Of a stretch of DNA of 64,000 nt, positions 53,316-60,670 are shown piece after piece (the first letter of the stretch is position 1; the number at the start of each line of letters is the position of its first letter). The DNA comes from a phage. The notes beneath the pieces are model-generated. The model saw only the letters and a list, made by a program, of their open reading frames with translations. It had not been told where the DNA came from and did no database searches. The stretch lies in the NCBI GenBank assembly GCA_020619395.1, contig GCA_020619395.1_4860.1; one strand, given 5' to 3'. The position numbers were made by a program, and so were the translations under genes.

Positions 53316-54137
53316 TCAGCGAAGGACGTCGGTAGTCTTACCGTGAGAGTTAACCACGTAGACTTCGTCGCCTTTATAAAACAGTTCGTACAACGCACCG
53401 GTACTGATCTGGTTATCAGGATCGTATCCAGATTCTTCTTCGATGCACATTGCGCCAATCAGTTCATCGACTGACCGGTCGCCAGGGCGAGCGCCTTTTA
53501 AAACAGTAACAACAGACTCACCGTTAATCCACTGCGACTGCTCCTGGACACCAGTGAACTCGATAGATGGACCAGGCTCTAATTCGACTTGTTGCAGTTC
53601 TTCCTGAGTGTAGACAATGATCGCCATGTCGCTATCAGGAGATGGTTTGTACCAGCCTAATTTCTCTGGGGGAGTACCGAAACCAACGAGTTCGCCGCAG
53701 ATACTATCCATGGCTTCTGGTTCACATAAATTTGTCGCCAGTACCAAGATAGCATTGCCCTTATTATCTAGCACGTAGCTAATAAACTCGCGTGCGTTGC
53801 AGTTAAACACCTCGACCGTTTCCAAATCGGGGATAATAAGGTTGGGGAAAAGCTGCCGCAAATACGTGTGTGCATAAACCTGACTTTTATATAATCTGTG
53901 CGACCAGCTGCAGTAGTCAGACAAATGCATGGTGTTCGGATCAGGCACATCAGGGGCAACGCGTTTTAACCCCGGATTAAGGGCTAACTTTTCATCATCG
54001 ACAACAATGTCGAAGCGCTCGTTCTCGAGCATCTTTAACGCCTCGCGGAATACACGAGACTTACGGTCACCGATACGAACTTTTTCATGTTCGGTAATAA
54101 TGCGGTCACCATCAATTACACGTTTAACTGTAAACAT
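53316..54137 (-). CDS. hypothetical protein
   Basis: 273-aa ORF; last phage-type gene before the island. Confidence 0.55.
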   Translation of the reverse strand: MFTVKRVIDGDRIITEHEKVRIGDRKSRVFREALKMLENERFDIVVDDEKLALNPGLKRVAPDVPDPNTMHLSDYCSWSHRLYKSQVYAHTYLRQLFPNLIIPDLETVEVFNCNAREFISYVLDNKGNAILVLATNLCEPEAMDSICGELVGFGTPPEKLGWYKPSPDSDMAIIVYTQEELQQVELEPGPSIEFTGVQEQSQWINGESVVTVLKGARPGDRSVDELIGAMCIEEESGYDPDNQISTGALYELFYKGDEVYVVNSHGKTTDVLR

Positions 54138-54517
54138 GTTGCTTCCTTCTTACTACTATTGCTGCTTCTATTGGTAGTCCACGACATATCCCTCGTGGGT
54201 GGGTTCGGTGTGTAACCGAATAAGTTTTTCTGTTCCCAGGGCAACGCACCAGGCTTAATTGATTTAGTTGGCAAACCAGGAACAGAAAAGGGGTATACAG
54301 ACTAGGGCGCGAGGTGGCTCTGGATGGATGCGTAAGAAAAACCCAAACGGCCCTGGCCTGTAAGTTGGCCCGAAGTCACCGTGTCGGAGGACAGCCCATG
54401 CAGGTAGGCGGCAATGGACACGGTGACCGCGGAAGTGGTTCGTGTTACCCTTGACCCGTGTGTGGATACGCGTCTTAATTCGAATGCCTTCGGGATAAGG
54501 GTAACACAAATGGGGCG

Positions 54518-54661
54518 AGCAAACGGACGGATTCGAACCGTCGAAATATCCGATTATGAGTCGGGTGTTAATTCCTCTAACTTCGCTGCTCTTGCTTTGA
54601 CCGGACTCGAACCGGCGACCTTCCTCGAAGAGGTTGCTCTACCTACCTGAGCTACAAAGCC
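54518..54661 (-). ncRNA. two tandem degenerate tRNA-like elements
   Basis: Element 1 (about 54518-54595): D-arm GTTA/TAAC, anticodon-like arm CCCGA-CTCATAA-TCGGA (CAU loop), T-arm GACGG-TTCGAAT-CCGTC, acceptor pairing imperfect. Element 2 (54593-54661): acceptor GGCTTTG/CAAAGC, D-arm GCTC/GAGC, T-arm GCCGG-TTCGAGT-CCGGT, but anticodon arm and variable region too short. Confidence 0.3.
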
Positions 54662-55706
54662 ATTGTTCATGGCATCATGATAGTTACACTCAACGTACCA
54701 CACCCCTACTGGTTTCCGTTTCGGGGGACTTAACCAGACACCATACGTCCAAGGTCGACGCTTAGGTGTGTTATCAGTTGCCTGACTGGAAATCTCTTAC
54801 GAGACGTCTACGTTGAACCGGCAAGCCGGCCATGATGTGAAGATGGGGGAACGCCCAGGCTTCCGCCCAGTCGAGTGAGGTACGAATCCTTCACTCCTGT
54901 CATCACTGATGGTGACAGCGCTCCCATTGTAAGGTGCCGGTGCATCCCGGCGTGTGTTAGTGCACTCAGCTCCCTCGGGCTTATCTGCGGCAACACGTTG
55001 CCCGGAGCACCGACATATACCACAGTAACCTCGTAAAGTCACTCTGGTATTGTTCGTTGCATACTACTAAGTTATCACGTAAACGATTTCATCACTTCCA
55101 TAAATAATAATTAACCTAAATTCATTTCTGAATGCGGGTGATGGACTTCTTCTTCTGAGCCTGGCCGCAAGGTCAGGTCTTAGCGCCTCCAAGCACCACC
55201 CGCTATCACGTACATTCGTGGCGTACCGGCCGTATGAGGTACCGCGCCTACGGTGACACACAGTCACCCTAACACTGGGAACTCAATCCCATTCGGTTAT
55301 CAGATTGTGGATTTACAGGCGTAGCGTAGCGGCTTAATGGGCCGGTGCTTGCCTGTCCCCTAGGGACGGTTGTCGTGGAGACGCCAGTCTGTAAGTGGGG
55401 CCCTTGCGGGAAAACCCATCGCCTGTAAACCAAACATGATTGAATACCCAGAACCGGACGTTGGAAATCAACATCCTGATGTACTGGAGTATTTCATGCA
55501 TAAACGTGTCTCGTATCGAATGAGGTTATGACCGGTCAGATACCCAGCATCCTGTACAAGCGACCTGGTGCTTTGTGTACCTGGCTGCTACGGATTTATT
55601 GGTCTACCGTAGGTCTGAGCTGCTACCGGCTCATGCGGGACATCAACCCGCACAATCTGAGTAAGTATCATGGCTCGAATAGGGTTAGTGGGCCGAAGCC
55701 CACTGT

Positions 55707-55961
55707 TTAGCCAGCATTGAACGATTCATGAACGACGGTCCCAGCAGGATAGTGCGTAGTGCCGATAAGAGTAACGGTCAGGGTAAGCCCTTCATCCCAG
55801 CGCTCTTTCGGTAACCAGCGGCAGTCCATCCAATGACCACAGTCGGGAGGAATTGCACACGCAGCTTGCTCCGTAGGAGCCGCCACGATTATGGAATCAA
55901 ATTCATCATACCCGATATCGTCAGTTCGTTCTAGCAAGTACAAATTCATGTTGTTCTCCAA
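55707..55961 (-). CDS. small hypothetical protein carrying one copy of the repeated NLY...VVAA..EQAA module
   Basis: 84-aa ORF with GGAG Shine-Dalgarno upstream; N-terminus MNLYLLERTDDIGYDEFDSIIVAAPTEQAA resembles two segments of 56671..57246. Confidence 0.45.
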   Translation of the reverse strand: MENNMNLYLLERTDDIGYDEFDSIIVAAPTEQAACAIPPDCGHWMDCRWLPKERWDEGLTLTVTLIGTTHYPAGTVVHESFNAG

Positions 55962-56013
55962 CAGTTGACAAATCTGTGTCTTCTGTGTTGAACCTGAATT
56001 CGTTGGCTAAATG

Positions 56014-56089
56014 TGGCGGGGGCACGAGGTTTCGAACCTCGAACCTTCGGTTTTGGAGACCGGTGCGCTACCAATTGCGCCATACCCCC
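56014..56089 (-). tRNA. tRNA-Trp (anticodon CCA)
   Basis: Hand-folded 76-nt cloverleaf: acceptor GGGGGTA/TGCCCCC, U8, D-arm GCGC-AATTGGTA-GCGC, anticodon arm CCGGT-CTCCAAA-ACCGA (U33, CCA, A37), variable AGGTT, T-arm CGAGG-TTCGAAA-CCTCG, discriminator G, encoded CCA. Confidence 0.85.
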
Positions 56090-56182
56090 AGAATTCTTTA
56101 AACGTGTTTATACGGATGCGCTACCCCGTTATCGCAGGCGATTGATGGGGTCAAGCTTGCGTGCTTCTGACTCCCGCATGAT

Positions 56183-56674
56183 TCACCTCCGTAATTCGTA
56201 AGTGCTAATCTCACCACCGGTGTAGATATCGCATTCAGACGCAATCTCAATAGCACGAACCGCACTCGCGCCCATCTTCATCGCACCCAACGCATACTCG
56301 TAACCGCTTCCGGTTGCCAGAGGTGGTGTGGCTTCACTCCACCACAACGTCACGTCGTCTTCACGTTTTCCGCCGACTATCGCTTTTCCTGAGGCCAAAA
56401 GCATCAGGAAAGTAAAATCCATCTTCGCAGGTAACTGCGAGCTTTGTGTTAACCCCTTGTAGCCGGGTCTCAAGCGGACCGTTTCCAGCAGGGCCAACTG
56501 TCCTGTGATGTCACCGCTTACTCCGAACGCCACAATCCGTTCACCAGTAATCCACCACTCCTCGTCAGGAGGACAGACGAATAACTTCTGGGTATTCAGG
56601 TTGCAGATATTCGACCCACGGGTTAACTGGCCGTCAGCAGCTAAGACTTTTCCATCGAACGCTATCGTCGTCAT
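56183..56674 (-). CDS. HslV-like N-terminal-threonine peptidase (proteasome beta-type fold)
   Basis: Start at ATG 56674 (GAGGAAGG Shine-Dalgarno; ATGA overlap with the upstream stop) gives MTTIAFDGKVLAADGQLT... (cf. E. coli HslV [24 protein letters not shown]), plus GSGYEYALGAM (cf. GSGGPYAQAAA) and DIYTGGEISTYEL (cf. DICIYTNHFHTIEEL); recalled from the E. coli sequence. Confidence 0.65.
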   Translation of the reverse strand: MTTIAFDGKVLAADGQLTRGSNICNLNTQKLFVCPPDEEWWITGERIVAFGVSGDITGQLALLETVRLRPGYKGLTQSSQLPAKMDFTFLMLLASGKAIVGGKREDDVTLWWSEATPPLATGSGYEYALGAMKMGASAVRAIEIASECDIYTGGEISTYELRR

Positions 56675-57246
56675 TGGGCCACCTTCCTCGGTGTGTACTC
56701 GAATGTCGTTTCCGTCAGGTAATCCTGGCGCATCCAAGTCAGCTCCTGGCCTTGCTCACACTTGATGTTCGTAACCAAACCGGCTTCAAGTGGTAGCTCA
56801 CAGACCGAAACGATTCCGGGTTTATCACCGTCCCAATGTGCGAATGCCGCCTCGGGGGTTGTTGCCCCGACGATGATTCCGGCGTCGACATAGTCTTCGG
56901 TAGCGACGTCGCTGTAAACCAGGTACAGCTTGATGATCGACGGTTGCTTGGCTTGGTAGCCGAAGTACACTCTGGTTTTACCCGTGGTAAGATTCCAGGT
57001 GTGTCTGGCGGATTCGGAAACAAATTCCAAACCGGGATGGGAATAATCATCCCAACGGCCTTGCTTCAGAACCACCCCAGGCGTAACCATCGGGGTAGAC
57101 ACAGCGCCGTCGTAGCAGCACGCAACCGCTGGACGCTCTGCGCTAACCGGCCAGAAGGATTTGGCCTGCTCCTCGTTTTCGGCTAAGACAACCAAAACCG
57201 ATTCAGGCATCTCGTTTCGGTAAAACCCGACGCGATACAAGTTCAT
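56671..57246 (-). CDS. hypothetical protein with internally duplicated NLY/KLY...VV-A..EEQA/PEAA..W module
   Basis: 191-aa ORF with GGAG Shine-Dalgarno upstream; segments MNLYRVGFYRNEMPESVLVVLAENEEQAKSFW and KLYLVYSDVATEDYVDAGIIVGATTPEAAFAHW are similar to each other and to 55707..55961. Confidence 0.5.
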   Translation of the reverse strand: MNLYRVGFYRNEMPESVLVVLAENEEQAKSFWPVSAERPAVACCYDGAVSTPMVTPGVVLKQGRWDDYSHPGLEFVSESARHTWNLTTGKTRVYFGYQAKQPSIIKLYLVYSDVATEDYVDAGIIVGATTPEAAFAHWDGDKPGIVSVCELPLEAGLVTNIKCEQGQELTWMRQDYLTETTFEYTPRKVAQ

Positions 57247-58164
57247 GGTTTAATTCTCCGTTTGGTTTATCATACCTCACGCAGAATCTGTAAATTTTAA
57301 TCAGCCAGGTACCGTCGTTTCTCAACGGGAGTACCCACCCCTCTCGTCTATTCCGAGCCGTCAAGATCCGATCACCCCACTTTGGAGTTATCCCCCAAGT
57401 CTGCGGTTCTACACGCAGACCCCTTTTCGACGCAACGCCGAATTCGAATCAGTTTTGGCCCGACGCCAGAGCGGAATCAGCGATAACTATCGGAGGTAAG
57501 TTCAACGACGTCTCTCCGCTGCCCAGTCCTCTGGCGCTGCCACGGTCAACTCGGATTTTGTCATGGGTGCGCAGTCGACTTTCTCGACACTCTCGCAAAC
57601 CGAACTACGCCCGACGTAGCACCGTCGGCAGGTCGGTTATTTACCGAGTACCTGAATGGGTGGTGATTGTCGGAATCCCCGCCGACGCTCACCGGTTCTG
57701 TTCCACGGCGAAAGTTTTCCAGAACATAATAAATCACGCAGTGTTAGATTGCGCTTTGTCGAAGACACCACGGTAGGTATTTTCGAAAAAGCGTCCTGGG
57801 TATCAGTCCCAGGACTTGGAGCCCTAGCGTGCAGGGTTTAAAAGTGATTGGACCATTGGCGCGGTCAATCGCTATTCGCATATAACAACAAACTCACGTA
57901 ATCAAAAAATTACCGGCTCGAGGCGTAGGCGTCCAGGAGCCGGTGAGTCACACAGCAGTGAGTCCCTCTGCGGGGATTTTCGTGGAGCTTGTCGTTGGAA
58001 TAAAAATCCGTCCCCGGACGGGTTGGTGTTGTGGGTCGACTTGTCAGAGTCTACCGACCAGGGAGGCGACCACCGAAGCTATGGGTTTTGGACATCGAGT
58101 GGTGGTCTGAACACACGATAGGGAAACCACGTAAAAAATACACAGGGTACCCAAACTAGGACTT

Positions 58165-58600
58165 CCGTCCGATCACGATCTCTTAATAAGGATCACGCGC
58201 GCGCCTGCACGCGTTTTAAGATCTTAATATATTAATATATTTATTTATATAAATAATTATAATAATTAAATATAATACCTAAAGGTATTATTATATTTAA
58301 TATTATTATATATCTTTTAAAAGATCCTGGAGGATACGGGTGTGCGCACGCGCACGCGTATAAGGAAAGGGTCTTCGACCCGATCCACAGGATCAATCTA
58401 AAAAACAATCTAAGTGATTGTTTTAAAAAGAAATTTTGAGAATTAGATTAAATTATCCCCTAAGGGGGATTTTAGAGCGAGTTAAACAACCCAAAGAACT
58501 CGTAAGTAACCGACAGTGTGTGTCGGTTACAGAACGATCCAGTTTTCACCCAGACATGGCACGAAGTGCTACCCAACGTGTGATCGTCGTCGCCGGCCGC
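58165..58600. other. origin/unwinding-element-like region: AT-rich core flanked by alternating CG tracts, GATC cluster, direct repeats and palindromes
   Basis: About 110-bp core with over 90% A+T (58213-58320) between cacgcgcgcgcctgcacgcg and gtgtgcgcacgcgcacgcg; 9 GATC at 58171, 58177, 58191, 58220, 58323, 58382, 58391, 58536, 58582; caatcta direct repeats 58393 and 58406; palindromes 58454-58470 and 58506-58530. Confidence 0.3.
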
Positions 58601-58958
58601 GACCGTCGTCCCGGAACCGAAACGGGAATGGCACTCTCGCGCTCTCAGCGGCCCGCTGGCGCGATTTTCCGGTATGGGGAACCCAAGTGTACTGGGTCTG
58701 AGTTAAATCTCGTTCTAGCGCTTTCTAGAGCGTTTTTAATAACTGGTTAAAAAACATACAATCCTGAATCCCCATTCCCTGAATTTCCTCGCCCCGACAA
58801 AAATAAATTCTCTGTCTCGATACATAACCCCCTCTAAAACGCACGTAACCGACCCTAGAAAACGATAAACTGCCAAAAACGAGCTACCCTACGTCGATAC
58901 CACCTAATCGTTTTCTGATGCTTCCCAGACCCCTTTAACCGGTTGGTTAAAAAGTAAC

Positions 58959-59009
58959 CAAAAAAATAAAAAAAAATAAGATTGGCGTACTCCCCGAAGA
59001 GAGTACGCC
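58959..59009 (-). terminator. rho-independent terminator after CDS 59017..59571
   Basis: Hairpin 58984-59009 (ggcgtactc / cccgaaga / gagtacgcc) with a long + strand A-run 58959-58980. Confidence 0.6.
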
Positions 59010-59016
59010 TAGTGAC

Positions 59017-59571
59017 TTAACACTTGATGGTGTAGCCATCAAGGCCAAGGTGTACTGGTTTTATCCATAACCCTGGCTCCCCGAAAATATTCAGGTCGTA
59101 AGTTTGGTAATGCATGATCTTTGCAGGAACATGCACACCCATGCGTTGCAGAAATTCCCAGACGGCGACGTAGCGTTCACGAGTGATGAACATTAGCCCG
59201 GAGTCGAACCCGGAACCGATGTCTAGGAAATTACCAAGAGAACTGTCAAAACTTGACACCCCATCTTGAGTAAGTGCGACCAACCCTTTAGTTAAATCTC
59301 TGTGGTTGTCAATGAAGTTACAGAGATCTACGATGGTTATTTGACCGTAAATACGACGGAGGACGGCAGCAACAGCCAAAATCTCGCTGGTATTTCCGTA
59401 GTCACCTAAAGGGTTATGGTCCATCATCGCAGTAATTATGCTTGTGTCGCAGAGGTCGATTAACCGCTGGTCATGTACCACCAGGTTAAGACCTTGCCCC
59501 ACCTGCACGGTTGGCGCAGTAAACATAGGAGGCTCCTTACGTTTTGACTGACTGTGAAGGTACTCTGGCAT
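59017..59571 (-). CDS. hypothetical protein
   Basis: 184-aa ORF with terminator immediately downstream. Confidence 0.55.
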   Translation of the reverse strand: MPEYLHSQSKRKEPPMFTAPTVQVGQGLNLVVHDQRLIDLCDTSIITAMMDHNPLGDYGNTSEILAVAAVLRRIYGQITIVDLCNFIDNHRDLTKGLVALTQDGVSSFDSSLGNFLDIGSGFDSGLMFITRERYVAVWEFLQRMGVHVPAKIMHYQTYDLNIFGEPGLWIKPVHLGLDGYTIKC

Positions 59572-60670
59572 CGTACATTAAAAAGATTTCCAGCAGGCTC
59601 ATACCCGTCGCGTAAAAGATTTGGTCTGTGATGACACTCACTAACGCATCTGGGTCAATCGCATCTACTGCAAAATCGCTGTCGAACTGCCAGAACTCGA
59701 CATCATCCCCCTTTTCAAACGTCGCGGCATACAATCCAGGTTTCACACCACGCCGGAACGAAAAGAGTTTTGCGTCAGACTCAGTGTCCTTACCATAAAT
59801 TTCCCCGTCGGTCCGTGTGATCGCTGCGCGTTTACACCGAGTTACCGTAAGGAGCGCACGGTTTGCAGATGCTTGCGATTTAAACGGATAGGGGCCATCG
59901 TATGTCGGGACATTCTGGTCGCCTAAGGCATCAAGTGCCTTACTCCGATAGACTACCGGAGACTTAAAATTACACAGTCGATTCCCTTCGGTAAACATTG
60001 TGTATTCGACCTTAACGTCGGTACCGACGAGGTCAGCAGGGGACACTTTGTAGTGTGCTAACTGTCCCTGCACGCGGCGAGAGAGCATCGATGCCAGGAA
60101 GGTATGGTTGCCCTGTGTACGCAAGACATAACCGAACTCTGTGCAGTCGACGATACGAGCGTCCATACGTCGTACAGGCTCTAGCCGGTAAGTCACATCA
60201 TTCGCTTCGATAAGAAACTGACTGATGCTAACATCGCGAGATCGATGTTTGATTGCTTCAAACACTTCACCCGCTTCCAGAATAGCTGGTTCAATTACAT
60301 TGACCTGGAATGGGAGGGGTTTCGTCGGCCGTTGACCCATTGTTGTCACTGTCATCGAACGTAGCCACGGATCGTCCTCGCTAGGGTCATTGGAAAGCCA
60401 ATGTGTTAACCAGCGAGAAAGGTTCTGAGGAATCGTTGCGGTTGAATATAAAATCACGGTACCCATTATACCTGCATCAGCTAGCAAGCGCGCGAGTACC
60501 GTGTTCATCGAATCGTATTTGCCATTTCGAAGAATAGGTAATCCCCCGACCTGGACCATTTCGCAGATGACGCCGTGCGGCAGCACCCACATCTTCACTT
60601 GTTGAGCAGAATGTATCTGCCCAGTGCGCAGCTTTTCTTGCCACGCGTGCTTACGTTCATAGTTCATCAT
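59537..60670 (-). CDS. hypothetical protein
   Basis: 377-aa ORF. Confidence 0.55.
   Translation of the reverse strand: MMNYERKHAWQEKLRTGQIHSAQQVKMWVLPHGVICEMVQVGGLPILRNGKYDSMNTVLARLLADAGIMGTVILYSTATIPQNLSRWLTHWLSNDPSEDDPWLRSMTVTTMGQRPTKPLPFQVNVIEPAILEAGEVFEAIKHRSRDVSISQFLIEANDVTYRLEPVRRMDARIVDCTEFGYVLRTQGNHTFLASMLSRRVQGQLAHYKVSPADLVGTDVKVEYTMFTEGNRLCNFKSPVVYRSKALDALGDQNVPTYDGPYPFKSQASANRALLTVTRCKRAAITRTDGEIYGKDTESDAKLFSFRRGVKPGLYAATFEKGDDVEFWQFDSDFAVDAIDPDALVSVITDQIFYATGMSLLEIFLMYDARVPSQSVKT

Follow-up and report, generated by a model that had tools for sequence, protein, structure and literature searches.

Evidence for a conserved structured RNA upstream of the tRNA genes of SPN3US-like jumbo phages

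A 64,000-nucleotide (nt) stretch of phage DNA (GenBank assembly GCA_020619395.1, contig GCA_020619395.1_4860.1; hereafter, the window) contains, at positions 57247-58164, a segment that a preliminary description made from the sequence alone had singled out as free of credible open reading frames (ORFs) and as a possible 5' leader, non-coding RNA or regulatory region. We found that this segment very likely encodes a functional structured RNA on the minus strand. A multi-helix fold, composed of the helices P2, H2/H3, H6, H7 and H8, a core hairpin and the terminal helix H10, is kept by compensatory substitutions in five to six phage lineages. The earlier suggestion of a function at the RNA level, on the strand of the downstream genes, is therefore borne out for the covarying part at 57302-57668. 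Among the options offered, we lean, by a little, towards an uncatalogued large structured phage RNA that is free-standing and closest in kind to GOLLD and ROOL. All positions refer to the window, and all features lie on the minus strand unless stated otherwise.

In alignments of the homologous sequences, invariant sequence blocks alternate with hairpins whose stems differ by lineage yet stay complementary. RNAalifold predicted 46 pairs from 14 distinct sequences, 16 of them with compensatory double changes. The structure tested consisted of these pairs and the hairpin noticed in the preliminary description, which gives 53 pairs in 10 helices on a MAFFT-based alignment. The proportion of paired cells was 94.7%, as compared to 86.4% in column shuffles (none of 500 as high), a control that is somewhat too lenient for related sequences, and 35-48% when the 3' partners were slid by 1-3 columns. 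Double changes were found in 20 pairs, against 13.6 in the shuffled and 4-6 in the slid alignments. A covariance model of the 3' 152 nt recovered all of the homologues, with scores of 75-157 bits, and had no other match in 343 kb. In the covariance-model alignment of 22 distinct sequences, which is fitted to the model and leans towards it as the MAFFT-based test does not, 95.1% of the cells were paired versus 84.1%, and 16 pairs showed double changes; over both tests, the slid controls gave 33-50% paired cells. The hairpin noticed at the outset proved to be real, reading GTCTGCG-GTTCTACA-CGCAGAC on the plus strand at 57399-57420, and only the boundary between its loop and its 3' arm had been placed one base off. 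Since compensatory substitutions occur in it among the relatives, it stands above chance, and it is one helix of a far larger conserved fold.

The same 53 pairs contain 105 G-U cells and 6 A-C cells, and this excess of G-U places the RNA on the minus strand. The plus-strand mirror of the structure was only 81% paired, and in the structure that RNAalifold itself proposed for the plus strand, A-C cells (51) outnumbered G-U cells (34). The terminator-like hairpins of the stretch likewise face the minus strand. A plus-strand RNA, suggested at first by UUCG-type loops read on that strand, was ruled out by this asymmetry.

The conserved body of the RNA (57302..57668, ~367 nt) is alignable across the five to six lineages and reaches from an invariant UUCAGGU (57656-57650) to an invariant GCUG (57305-57302). 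Its core and several loops are nearly invariant, and the variable inserts are situated in the 5' part. The 28-nt core (57339..57366) is nearly invariant UCUUGACGGCUCGGAAUAGACGAGAGGG, or UCUUGRCGGCUCGGAA(U)AGACGAGAGGG when variation is written in. The four pairs of the CUCG/CGAG hairpin within it (57357-57354 with 57346-57343) never vary, and covariation neither supports nor refutes them. The terminal helix H10 (57303..57340) is a 14-pair bulged hairpin with a GNGA/GAGA-type loop; nine of its 14 pairs show compensatory double changes, and 96-98% of its cells are paired. Upstream of the core, H6 (57427..57441, UCGGCG UUG CGUCGA) was 100% paired in the tested alignment (A2), with exchanges between G-U and G-C and between GC and UG, and with G-U replaced by A-U in an Escherichia coli episome described below. 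In H7 (57399..57420, GUCUGCG/CGCAGAC), which is the hairpin of the preliminary description, four of the seven pairs show double changes (GC to CG, UA to CG and UA to AU, in either direction). At the place of H7, the pEa10 group has a hairpin made from another sequence, GUACACGG/CCGUGUAC, which is misaligned by one column. In Wellingtonvirus and the E. coli episome, H6 and H7 are swapped for other hairpins, and P2, H2/H3, the core and H10 are kept. The CUCC strand of H8 (57384..57395), at 57387-57384, pairs with a G-run upstream of it. This strand has an alternative partner, GGGG/GGAG, just downstream (~57375-57383), both options being present in nearly all homologues; such double pairing could mean that the strand acts in a conformational switch, or that it belongs to a pseudoknot or triple.

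Helix P2 joins 57652-57644 with 57554-57544 around a variable apical insert. MAFFT cannot align its arms, and the sequences were therefore checked one by one: P2 is formed in 18 of 18 distinct sequences despite differing arms (CUCGG/CCGAG, CUCAG/CUGAG, AUCUGGC/GCCGGGU, UCGGUC/GACCGG and CCUGUC/GACAGG), with an insert of 4-81 nt between them. The central domain (57457..57541) is closed by H2 (57541-57539 with 57459-57457) and H3 (57537-57532 with 57468-57463), and contains a hairpin at 57508-57490 with the conserved loop GAACUUACC (57503-57495). The closing pair of H2 is UA in seven cases, CG in six and UG in one, and double changes affect two pairs in H3 and two in the GAACUUACC-loop hairpin. 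Three further pairings were considered and set aside. A long-range CCGU:RCGG helix proposed by RNAalifold shows one-sided changes only and competes with P2, and is doubtful; a closing helix between 5' CCACCC and 3' GGGGUGG is found only in Seoulvirus, Erskinevirus and the E. coli episome, and is not general; a pairing of 5' UUCAG with 3' CUGAA is possible but unsupported, as its sides are invariant or imperfect.

The RNA may extend further at its 5' end (57669..57728). The sequence TATG at 57728-57725 resembles a phiKZ-type late promoter, for which the rule is 5'-T(-3)ATG(+1)-3' at the start site (PMC7598289). With the G as position +1 of a putative transcript, the RNA would measure ~424 nt. 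The motif is kept as TATGTTC in Seoulvirus, Erskinevirus and Machinavirus and as TATGGGG in the E. coli episome, and the hairpins within 57669-57728 are lineage-specific (Seoulvirus/Erskinevirus). TATG occurs at 57728-57725, 57882-57879 and 57274-57271, is kept in several lineages, and is too short a motif for specificity.

To identify its relatives, the 918-nt stretch was compared with phage sequences by blastn in distant mode, which yielded 54 phage records. The window itself belongs to an SPN3US-like jumbo phage of the genus Seoulvirus, with genomes of ~240 kb, and its closest relatives by blastn are Salmonella phage 1252, Proteus phage 7 and SPLA5c (98-99% identity). Across the seoulviruses, the stretch is 91-99% identical, and near-full-length matches were also found in SPAsTU (74% over 96% of the query) and Erwinia phage pEa_SNUABM_29 (71% over 91%). 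More distant matches covered 57254-57546 in Erskinevirus (Asesino, phiEaH2; 77-78%), 57338-57446 in Machinavirus (ChrisDB, Caitlin; ~80%) and 57300-57378 in Wellingtonvirus (Kwan, Wellington; ~80%). The locus is syntenic in these four genera. A 377-amino-acid (aa) protein encoded nearby is only 60%, 52-55% and 48% identical in Erskinevirus, Machinavirus and Wellingtonvirus, respectively, against 70-80% for the non-coding sequence. An nhmmer profile detected a single copy of the RNA in the window (E 2.7e-68). A scan with the core pattern found 11 IMG/VR and 9 metagenome loci, all sufficiently long ones being jumbo-phage contigs of 236-249 kb, and gave zero matches in 185,579 bacterial and archaeal genomes (GTDB set).

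A blastn search of complete E. coli genomes returned a single match, to a 221,873-bp circular 'plasmid' (NZ_CP173450.1, our locus L039) of the urine isolate strain 98232. This locus is syntenic, with a homologue of the 377-aa protein, a 2.1-kb gap, an HslV-like gene and a tRNA-Ile gene, and the nhmmer profile aligned the entire RNA on it (E 5e-30). A 222,441-bp 'plasmid' of Enterobacter ludwigii (NZ_CP134650.1), matched over the RNA only, carries the same version of the RNA at 98.3% identity. Both ~222-kb circles are relatives of these jumbo phages and constitute a fifth lineage bearing the RNA, suggesting that a phage of lytic type persists as an episome, in a carrier state or pseudolysogeny, or was co-assembled with its host. 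No similarity to the RNA was detected by blastn in the chromosomes of 5426 E. coli genomes. Derbicusvirus (EarlPhillipIV, Phobos, CR5) has a 377-aa homologue with 40-42% identity, and its gap of only ~500 nt holds the AT-rich element that borders the stretch; neither nhmmer nor the covariance model found a homologue of the RNA in that gap.

The Rfam scan proposed in the preliminary description gave zero matches in the stretch: cmscan with the 4227 models of Rfam 15 found none within 57247-58164 at the gathering threshold and none at E values up to 5, and at eight homologous loci no match fell on the RNA at E up to 1. Among the families covered by these searches were GOLLD, ROOL, group I and II introns, RNase P, tmRNA, 6S, SRP RNA, tRNA, T-box and riboswitches. 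In the literature, we found no description of this RNA and no transcriptome of an SPN3US-like phage; an overlap with an unnamed entry of a catalogue of 10,006 candidate viral RNAs is possible (PMC10690425). Certain resemblances were examined and rejected. The GAACUUACC loop is complementary to positions 1949-1957 of host 23S ribosomal RNA, and other 9-nt matches exist, but every shuffle gives runs of at least 9 nt, so that these are attributable to chance. Similarities to the CR-I element of RNase P (GGAAAG) and to the 23S sequence GACGGAAAGAC had no Rfam or blastn support, and a T-box likeness of GGGUGGGUAC/GGUACCGCGG was superficial, not conserved in Machinavirus and without Rfam support.

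The stretch had been described as one element and was found to be composite, its part at 57786-58164 (0.35 kb) consisting of terminator-delimited short units outside the large RNA. The minus strand of the stretch carries three or four such units in all. On the side of the AT-rich element, a promoter-like T-rich-ACG motif, TATTTTTTACGTGG (58127..58140), points leftwards and is kept in Seoulvirus and Erskinevirus. It is followed by three terminator-like hairpins. T3 (58002..58021; CCGUCCGGGGACGG then AUUUUUAUU) and T1 (57786..57815; stem 57815-57793, U-run 57790-57786, then a conserved CGAGA(A/G)U) were detected by a terminator scan. T2 (57904..57943; CCGGCUC...GAGCCGG at 57943-57913, U-run 57909-57904), preceded by a conserved ACUGCUGUGUG (57959-57949), was read from the sequence, as the scan misses its long loop. 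In the manner of intrinsic terminators, all three are G+C-rich hairpins with a U-run behind them on the transcribed strand, and they have positional equivalents with unrelated stems in Erskinevirus; a T1-type hairpin with CUUUUUCGAG occurs at the same place in every lineage, again with unrelated stems. Between 56000 and 59600, 11 terminator-like sites were found as compared with 4.3 expected. The segment from a conserved GUUAUAUGCGAAUAG, which includes the TATG at 57882-57879, to T1 is a candidate unit (57786..57882) that could make an RNA of ~90 nt, judging from its sequence; the motif, a small covarying hairpin (CCCUGCACGCUAGGG versus UCUGCGUGUGCAGA) and the linker GCUCC are kept between Seoulvirus and Erskinevirus. 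A further hairpin, T0 (57736..57754), recognized by eye, has the conserved loop (C)CUAACAC and is followed by a U-rich tract. Its loop is kept and its stem differs (again by eye) in Seoulvirus, Erskinevirus, Machinavirus and the E. coli episome; it could be terminator-like or a recognition hairpin upstream of the RNA. A sigma-70 promoter upstream of the RNA, T(C/G)GACA-N17-TAACAC, was also considered and rejected, as the spacing in the window is 10 nt, the -10 is poor and the segment folds as a hairpin with a conserved loop.

On the other side, a promoter-like AAAATTTACAG...TATG motif (57271..57298) lies between the 3' end of the RNA and the 191-aa ORF, and may serve the downstream gene. The same arrangement is found upstream of the 377-aa gene (~60726) and of other genes. 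TTTTTTACRG follows the RNA in most lineages and is missing in pEa9, pEa10 and the loci L020 and L027. The T-rich-ACRG class was dropped as an established promoter class and is retained here as a conserved motif only; since the class is not enriched in the window, the promoter role of the T-rich-ACG motif is putative.

The RNA gene is always found at one syntenic position, preceded by one to three terminator hairpins, and what follows it varies. Here its first neighbour is the 191-aa ORF, and in the E. coli episome a different, 125-aa ORF; a 'family X' protein follows directly in SPAsTU, pEa29, Machinavirus and Wellingtonvirus, and an HslV-like gene in phiEaH2 and L013. In every RNA-bearing lineage with enough sequence, tRNA genes, usually with tRNA-Trp first, are found on the same strand 0.6-2.6 kb downstream (as checked in the window and in L003, L004, L006, L009, L013, L023, L027 and L039), and the syntenic Derbicusvirus loci, which are without the RNA, have no tRNA genes nearby. 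The arrangement is a conserved, syntenic part of the phage lineage and no foreign insertion, so that the word 'island', applied earlier to the downstream operon, was misleading.

A recent insertion was recognized within the RNA gene itself. In Kwan, Wellington and two metagenomic contigs, a 634-nt cassette (L012 1205-1840 in Kwan; also L015, L022 and L025) has taken the place of 21 nt in a variable hairpin. It sits 3 nt upstream of the invariant core and is absent from the 99.85% identical L023. The cassette begins with a terminator hairpin, followed by a 169-aa ORF for an HNH endonuclease (PF13392, E 2e-5); on its 5' and 3' sides, the RNA gene is otherwise intact. The gene is thereby split, its 5' piece ending at the terminator of the cassette and its 3' piece lying in the 3' untranslated region of the HNH messenger RNA (mRNA). 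A sub-threshold Rfam match to int-alpA (31 versus 35.8 bits) was seen at L012 1734-1799, upstream of the HNH ORF. Homing endonuclease elements choose such sites in conserved genes, and the cassette is a recent homing-type insertion beside the most conserved sequence of the gene. The RNA that bears it is probably expressed as two pieces or inactivated.

How would such an RNA be made and act? In the explanation that we favor, T3, T2 and T1 would stop transcription arriving from the AT-rich element and the genes to its right, and with this insulation the RNA would have a separate start, located close to or at the TATG at 57725, and nearer 57668 in lineages without the motif. Its 3' end would be set by H10 through processing, or the RNA would be cut from a longer transcript that runs into the HslV-like/tRNA block. 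It would then accumulate as a discrete, stable, folded molecule and work in trans, as an RNA scaffold, an RNA-protein particle or an RNA-only assembly in the manner of GOLLD and ROOL. Independence from the next gene is indicated by the promoter-like motif that usually separates the two. We rate a discrete trans-acting RNA, rather than action in cis, at even or marginally better. The fuller proposal of a new class of free RNA in the nucleus-forming SPN3US-like jumbo phages, forming an RNA-only assembly or an RNA-protein particle as GOLLD and ROOL may do, or being catalytic, with the core and conserved loops as active or binding centre, falls somewhat short of even, and the catalytic version by itself, acting for example on precursors of phage tRNA or mRNA, is improbable.

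Several points weigh against the proposal of a free-standing RNA. Both the start and the end of the RNA are placed from sequence features; the pEa10 group and Wellingtonvirus lack the TATG start, no canonical terminator follows H10, and the T-rich-ACRG class to which the flanking motifs belong is not enriched in the window (11 versus 8.7 expected). In pEa9, pEa10, L020 and L027, the next ATG comes ~25 nt after GCUG with no promoter-like motif in between, and the RNA is probably co-transcribed with the next gene there. The split gene of Kwan and Wellington indicates that these phages may be able to do without an intact RNA, at least over short periods. As for the fold, the sequences are related, and the shuffle control overstates the significance somewhat, a weakness that the slid control does not share. 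The folding energy is only ~2 standard deviations below that of shuffles (z = -1.97 for the minus and -1.95 for the plus strand), and the support for the fold is comparative and not energetic.

The strongest competing explanation, which we consider possible but clearly the less probable, is that there is no free RNA and that the conserved sequence is a cis-acting 5' leader of the downstream block (the variable small gene, the HslV-like peptidase gene, tRNA-Trp and so on), for example a riboswitch-like sensor, a processive-antitermination element or a determinant of stability or processing. The sequence is on the same strand, directly upstream of this block, an HslV-like gene lies less than 1 kb downstream in four lineages, and the alternative pairings of the CUCC strand in most homologues are typical of switches. 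The lack of a terminator after H10 likewise speaks for a leader, and the co-transcription in pEa9, pEa10, L020 and L027, where the next ATG is so close, is as compatible with a 5' leader as with a processed RNA. On the other hand, the gene immediately downstream changes from lineage to lineage. HslV-like genes are found in 471 records from a wide variety of phages and the RNA only in the SPN3US-like clade, so that it is no HslV leader as such. In most lineages, the conserved promoter-like motif stands between the RNA and the gene, and the ribosome-binding site is outside the conserved fold. Furthermore, this RNA greatly exceeds known leaders in size and complexity, and it matches no riboswitch, T-box or leader family in Rfam.

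The remaining explanations are unlikely even when taken jointly. One of them, improbable in our view, is that the region is an insulating spacer only: terminators and promoters would separate the origin-like element from the next operon, and the hairpins would serve as terminators or attenuators without yielding an RNA in its own right. The three to four tandem terminator-like hairpins on the minus strand, their excess over expectation and the promoter-like motifs accord with this, and it explains 57786-58164 well; 57302-57668 is left unexplained, with its helices lacking U-tracts, the long-range P2 and H2/H3 and a core that is invariant across genera. About as improbable is a role at the DNA level, through protein-binding sites or hairpins for replication or packaging, with no RNA made. 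The stretch is 0.45-0.9 kb from the conserved AT-rich palindromic, origin-like element at which many database records open, a terminase gene is ~4 kb away, and the 28-nt invariant core would suit a protein-binding site. However, compensatory changes keep more than 50 pairs over ~350 nt, the G-U/A-C asymmetry is expected for RNA or one single strand and not for duplex sites, and Derbicusvirus keeps the AT-rich element without the RNA sequence, showing that the two are separable.

The weakest explanation, an unrecognized or decayed protein gene, a self-splicing intron or another mobile RNA, is largely refuted already and retains very little probability. The absence of a credible ORF was confirmed, the longest start-to-stop ORFs encoding 72 (TTG start), 61, 58, 55 and 49 aa, and none of these five matched PHROGs. 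A 161-codon stop-free run on the plus strand (57294-57776), whose length exceeds chance expectation and probably follows from the base composition of the RNA, has no ATG, GTG or TTG before 57558, so that most of it lacks a start codon. The small CDSs annotated here in some relatives would also speak for a protein, but the homologues' open frames fall on different strands in different lineages, indel lengths are mostly not multiples of three (8, 65 and 27 with a remainder of 0, 1 and 2, respectively, on division by three), and in the lineage of the window a 1-nt insertion falls within the 28 nt that are conserved best; the stretch is therefore non-coding, and the possibility raised in the preliminary description that a protein gene might cover it found no support. 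For an intron, one could point to the HNH ORF inside the Kwan and Wellington copies, as often seen in group I introns, but there are no flanking exons, only a terminator upstream and the promoter-like motif, ribosome-binding site and ATG of the next gene downstream, Rfam offers neither a group I or group II intron nor any other family at E up to 5, and the HNH cassette is a recent insertion missing from the nearly identical relative.

In annotated relatives, the stretch falls within a 1.77-kb gap free of annotated coding sequences (CDSs), equivalent to window 57247-59016, with the 191-aa ORF (ATG at 57246) and the gene of an HslV-family peptidase (PHROG 1040) on one edge and a 184-aa ORF on the other, all on the minus strand; the other limit of the stretch itself is the AT-rich element at ~58165. 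Most related GenBank records annotate no CDS in the stretch, and the small 'hypothetical' CDSs of some relatives are inconsistent with one another in position and strand. Several of the SPFM phage records LR535901-LR535917 gave matches split into 14-40 pieces and showing numerous small differences, which set them apart from other isolates of that study; the pattern is suggestive of a problem of sequence quality, and their small 'hypothetical protein' calls in the stretch appear untrustworthy. The 377-aa protein (window 59537-60670, minus strand) belongs to PHROG 8136, a family without assigned function, and has no Pfam match; two GenBank records label it 'putative DNA ligase', which Pfam does not support. 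A search for related loci with this protein alone returned SPN3US only.

The AT-rich block (58165-58400, on to ~59016) is strongly palindromic, with inverted repeats at 58231-58322, GATC clusters on both sides and the GC-rich repeats GCGCGCGCCTGCACGCG and GTGTGCGCACGCGCACGCG in its flanks. It is kept in all genera, including Derbicusvirus, and many GenBank records open inside it, at ~58230-58290; it probably serves as a replication origin or a comparable DNA element. The rest of the gap (58436-59016) also holds terminator-like hairpins and no annotated gene. Another ORF-poor stretch lies at 54137-56183, where ARAGORN called only a tRNA-Trp at 56014-56089. Weak Rfam tRNA-like matches at 54518-54589 (30.6 bits) and 54592-54661 (40.9 bits) were not called by ARAGORN and may represent tRNA genes that are decaying or of an unusual type; in the corresponding region, SPAsTU carries at least six tRNA genes. 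Finally, the palindromic motif (T)AGATATTATCT occurs in 13 copies in the window, as compared with 0.7 expected, and is absent from 57247-58164. Its sites (28915, 32658, 34074, 42181, 42274, 50184, 53160 and others) are nearly always in short intergenic gaps upstream of genes, and it is likely a promoter consensus for one of the phage's own RNA polymerases.

Among known systems, GOLLD (RF01998) and ROOL (RF03087) come closest. These RNAs are encoded in phages and prophages, often near tRNA islands (PMC12286853). Like them, the present RNA is a large, elaborate non-coding phage RNA beside a tRNA island, with an invariant 3' domain and a variable 5' part. Unlike them, it has no match to their covariance models, measures ~370-430 nt as against ~580 and more than 800 nt, and is confined to one clade of enterobacterial jumbo phages instead of being widespread. 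The likeness lies in kind and context and not in membership. Cis-acting leaders (riboswitches, T-box, HK022 put, EAR) share with it a position upstream of an operon on the same strand, a possible alternative pairing of the kind seen for CUCC and, in some lineages, the lack of a terminator between RNA and operon; the present RNA is two to five times larger, its downstream gene is not conserved, and Rfam gives no match. The tRNA cluster of phage T4 also encodes stable RNAs other than tRNA (species 1 and 2, rnaC/rnaD), of ~120-140 nt, which are cut from a common precursor next to the tRNAs. Processing of this type is the route that we propose where the present RNA abuts the next gene, and homology is not expected. 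The HNH cassette of Kwan and Wellington recalls the RNA genes invaded by homing elements, such as group I intron loops and ribosomal RNA genes; the host RNA here, having no exons, is no intron, and the cassette brings its own terminator.

Taken together, these comparisons are best read as indicating a new family, a third unrelated large phage RNA beside tRNA islands, and the repeated association of large RNAs with such islands suggests a general function. Large, intricate RNAs of bacteria and phages are rare, those that are understood being ribozymes, ribonucleoprotein scaffolds or RNA cages, and each new class of large folded RNA has opened new biochemistry. For annotation, the RNA would account for a 1.8-kb 'empty' gap in more than 50 deposited jumbo-phage genomes and two 'plasmids'. 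Unlike most RNA classes known from metagenomes only, it is open to direct functional study in a tractable Salmonella phage, SPN3US, for which amber mutants, proteomics and antisense knock-down are at hand.

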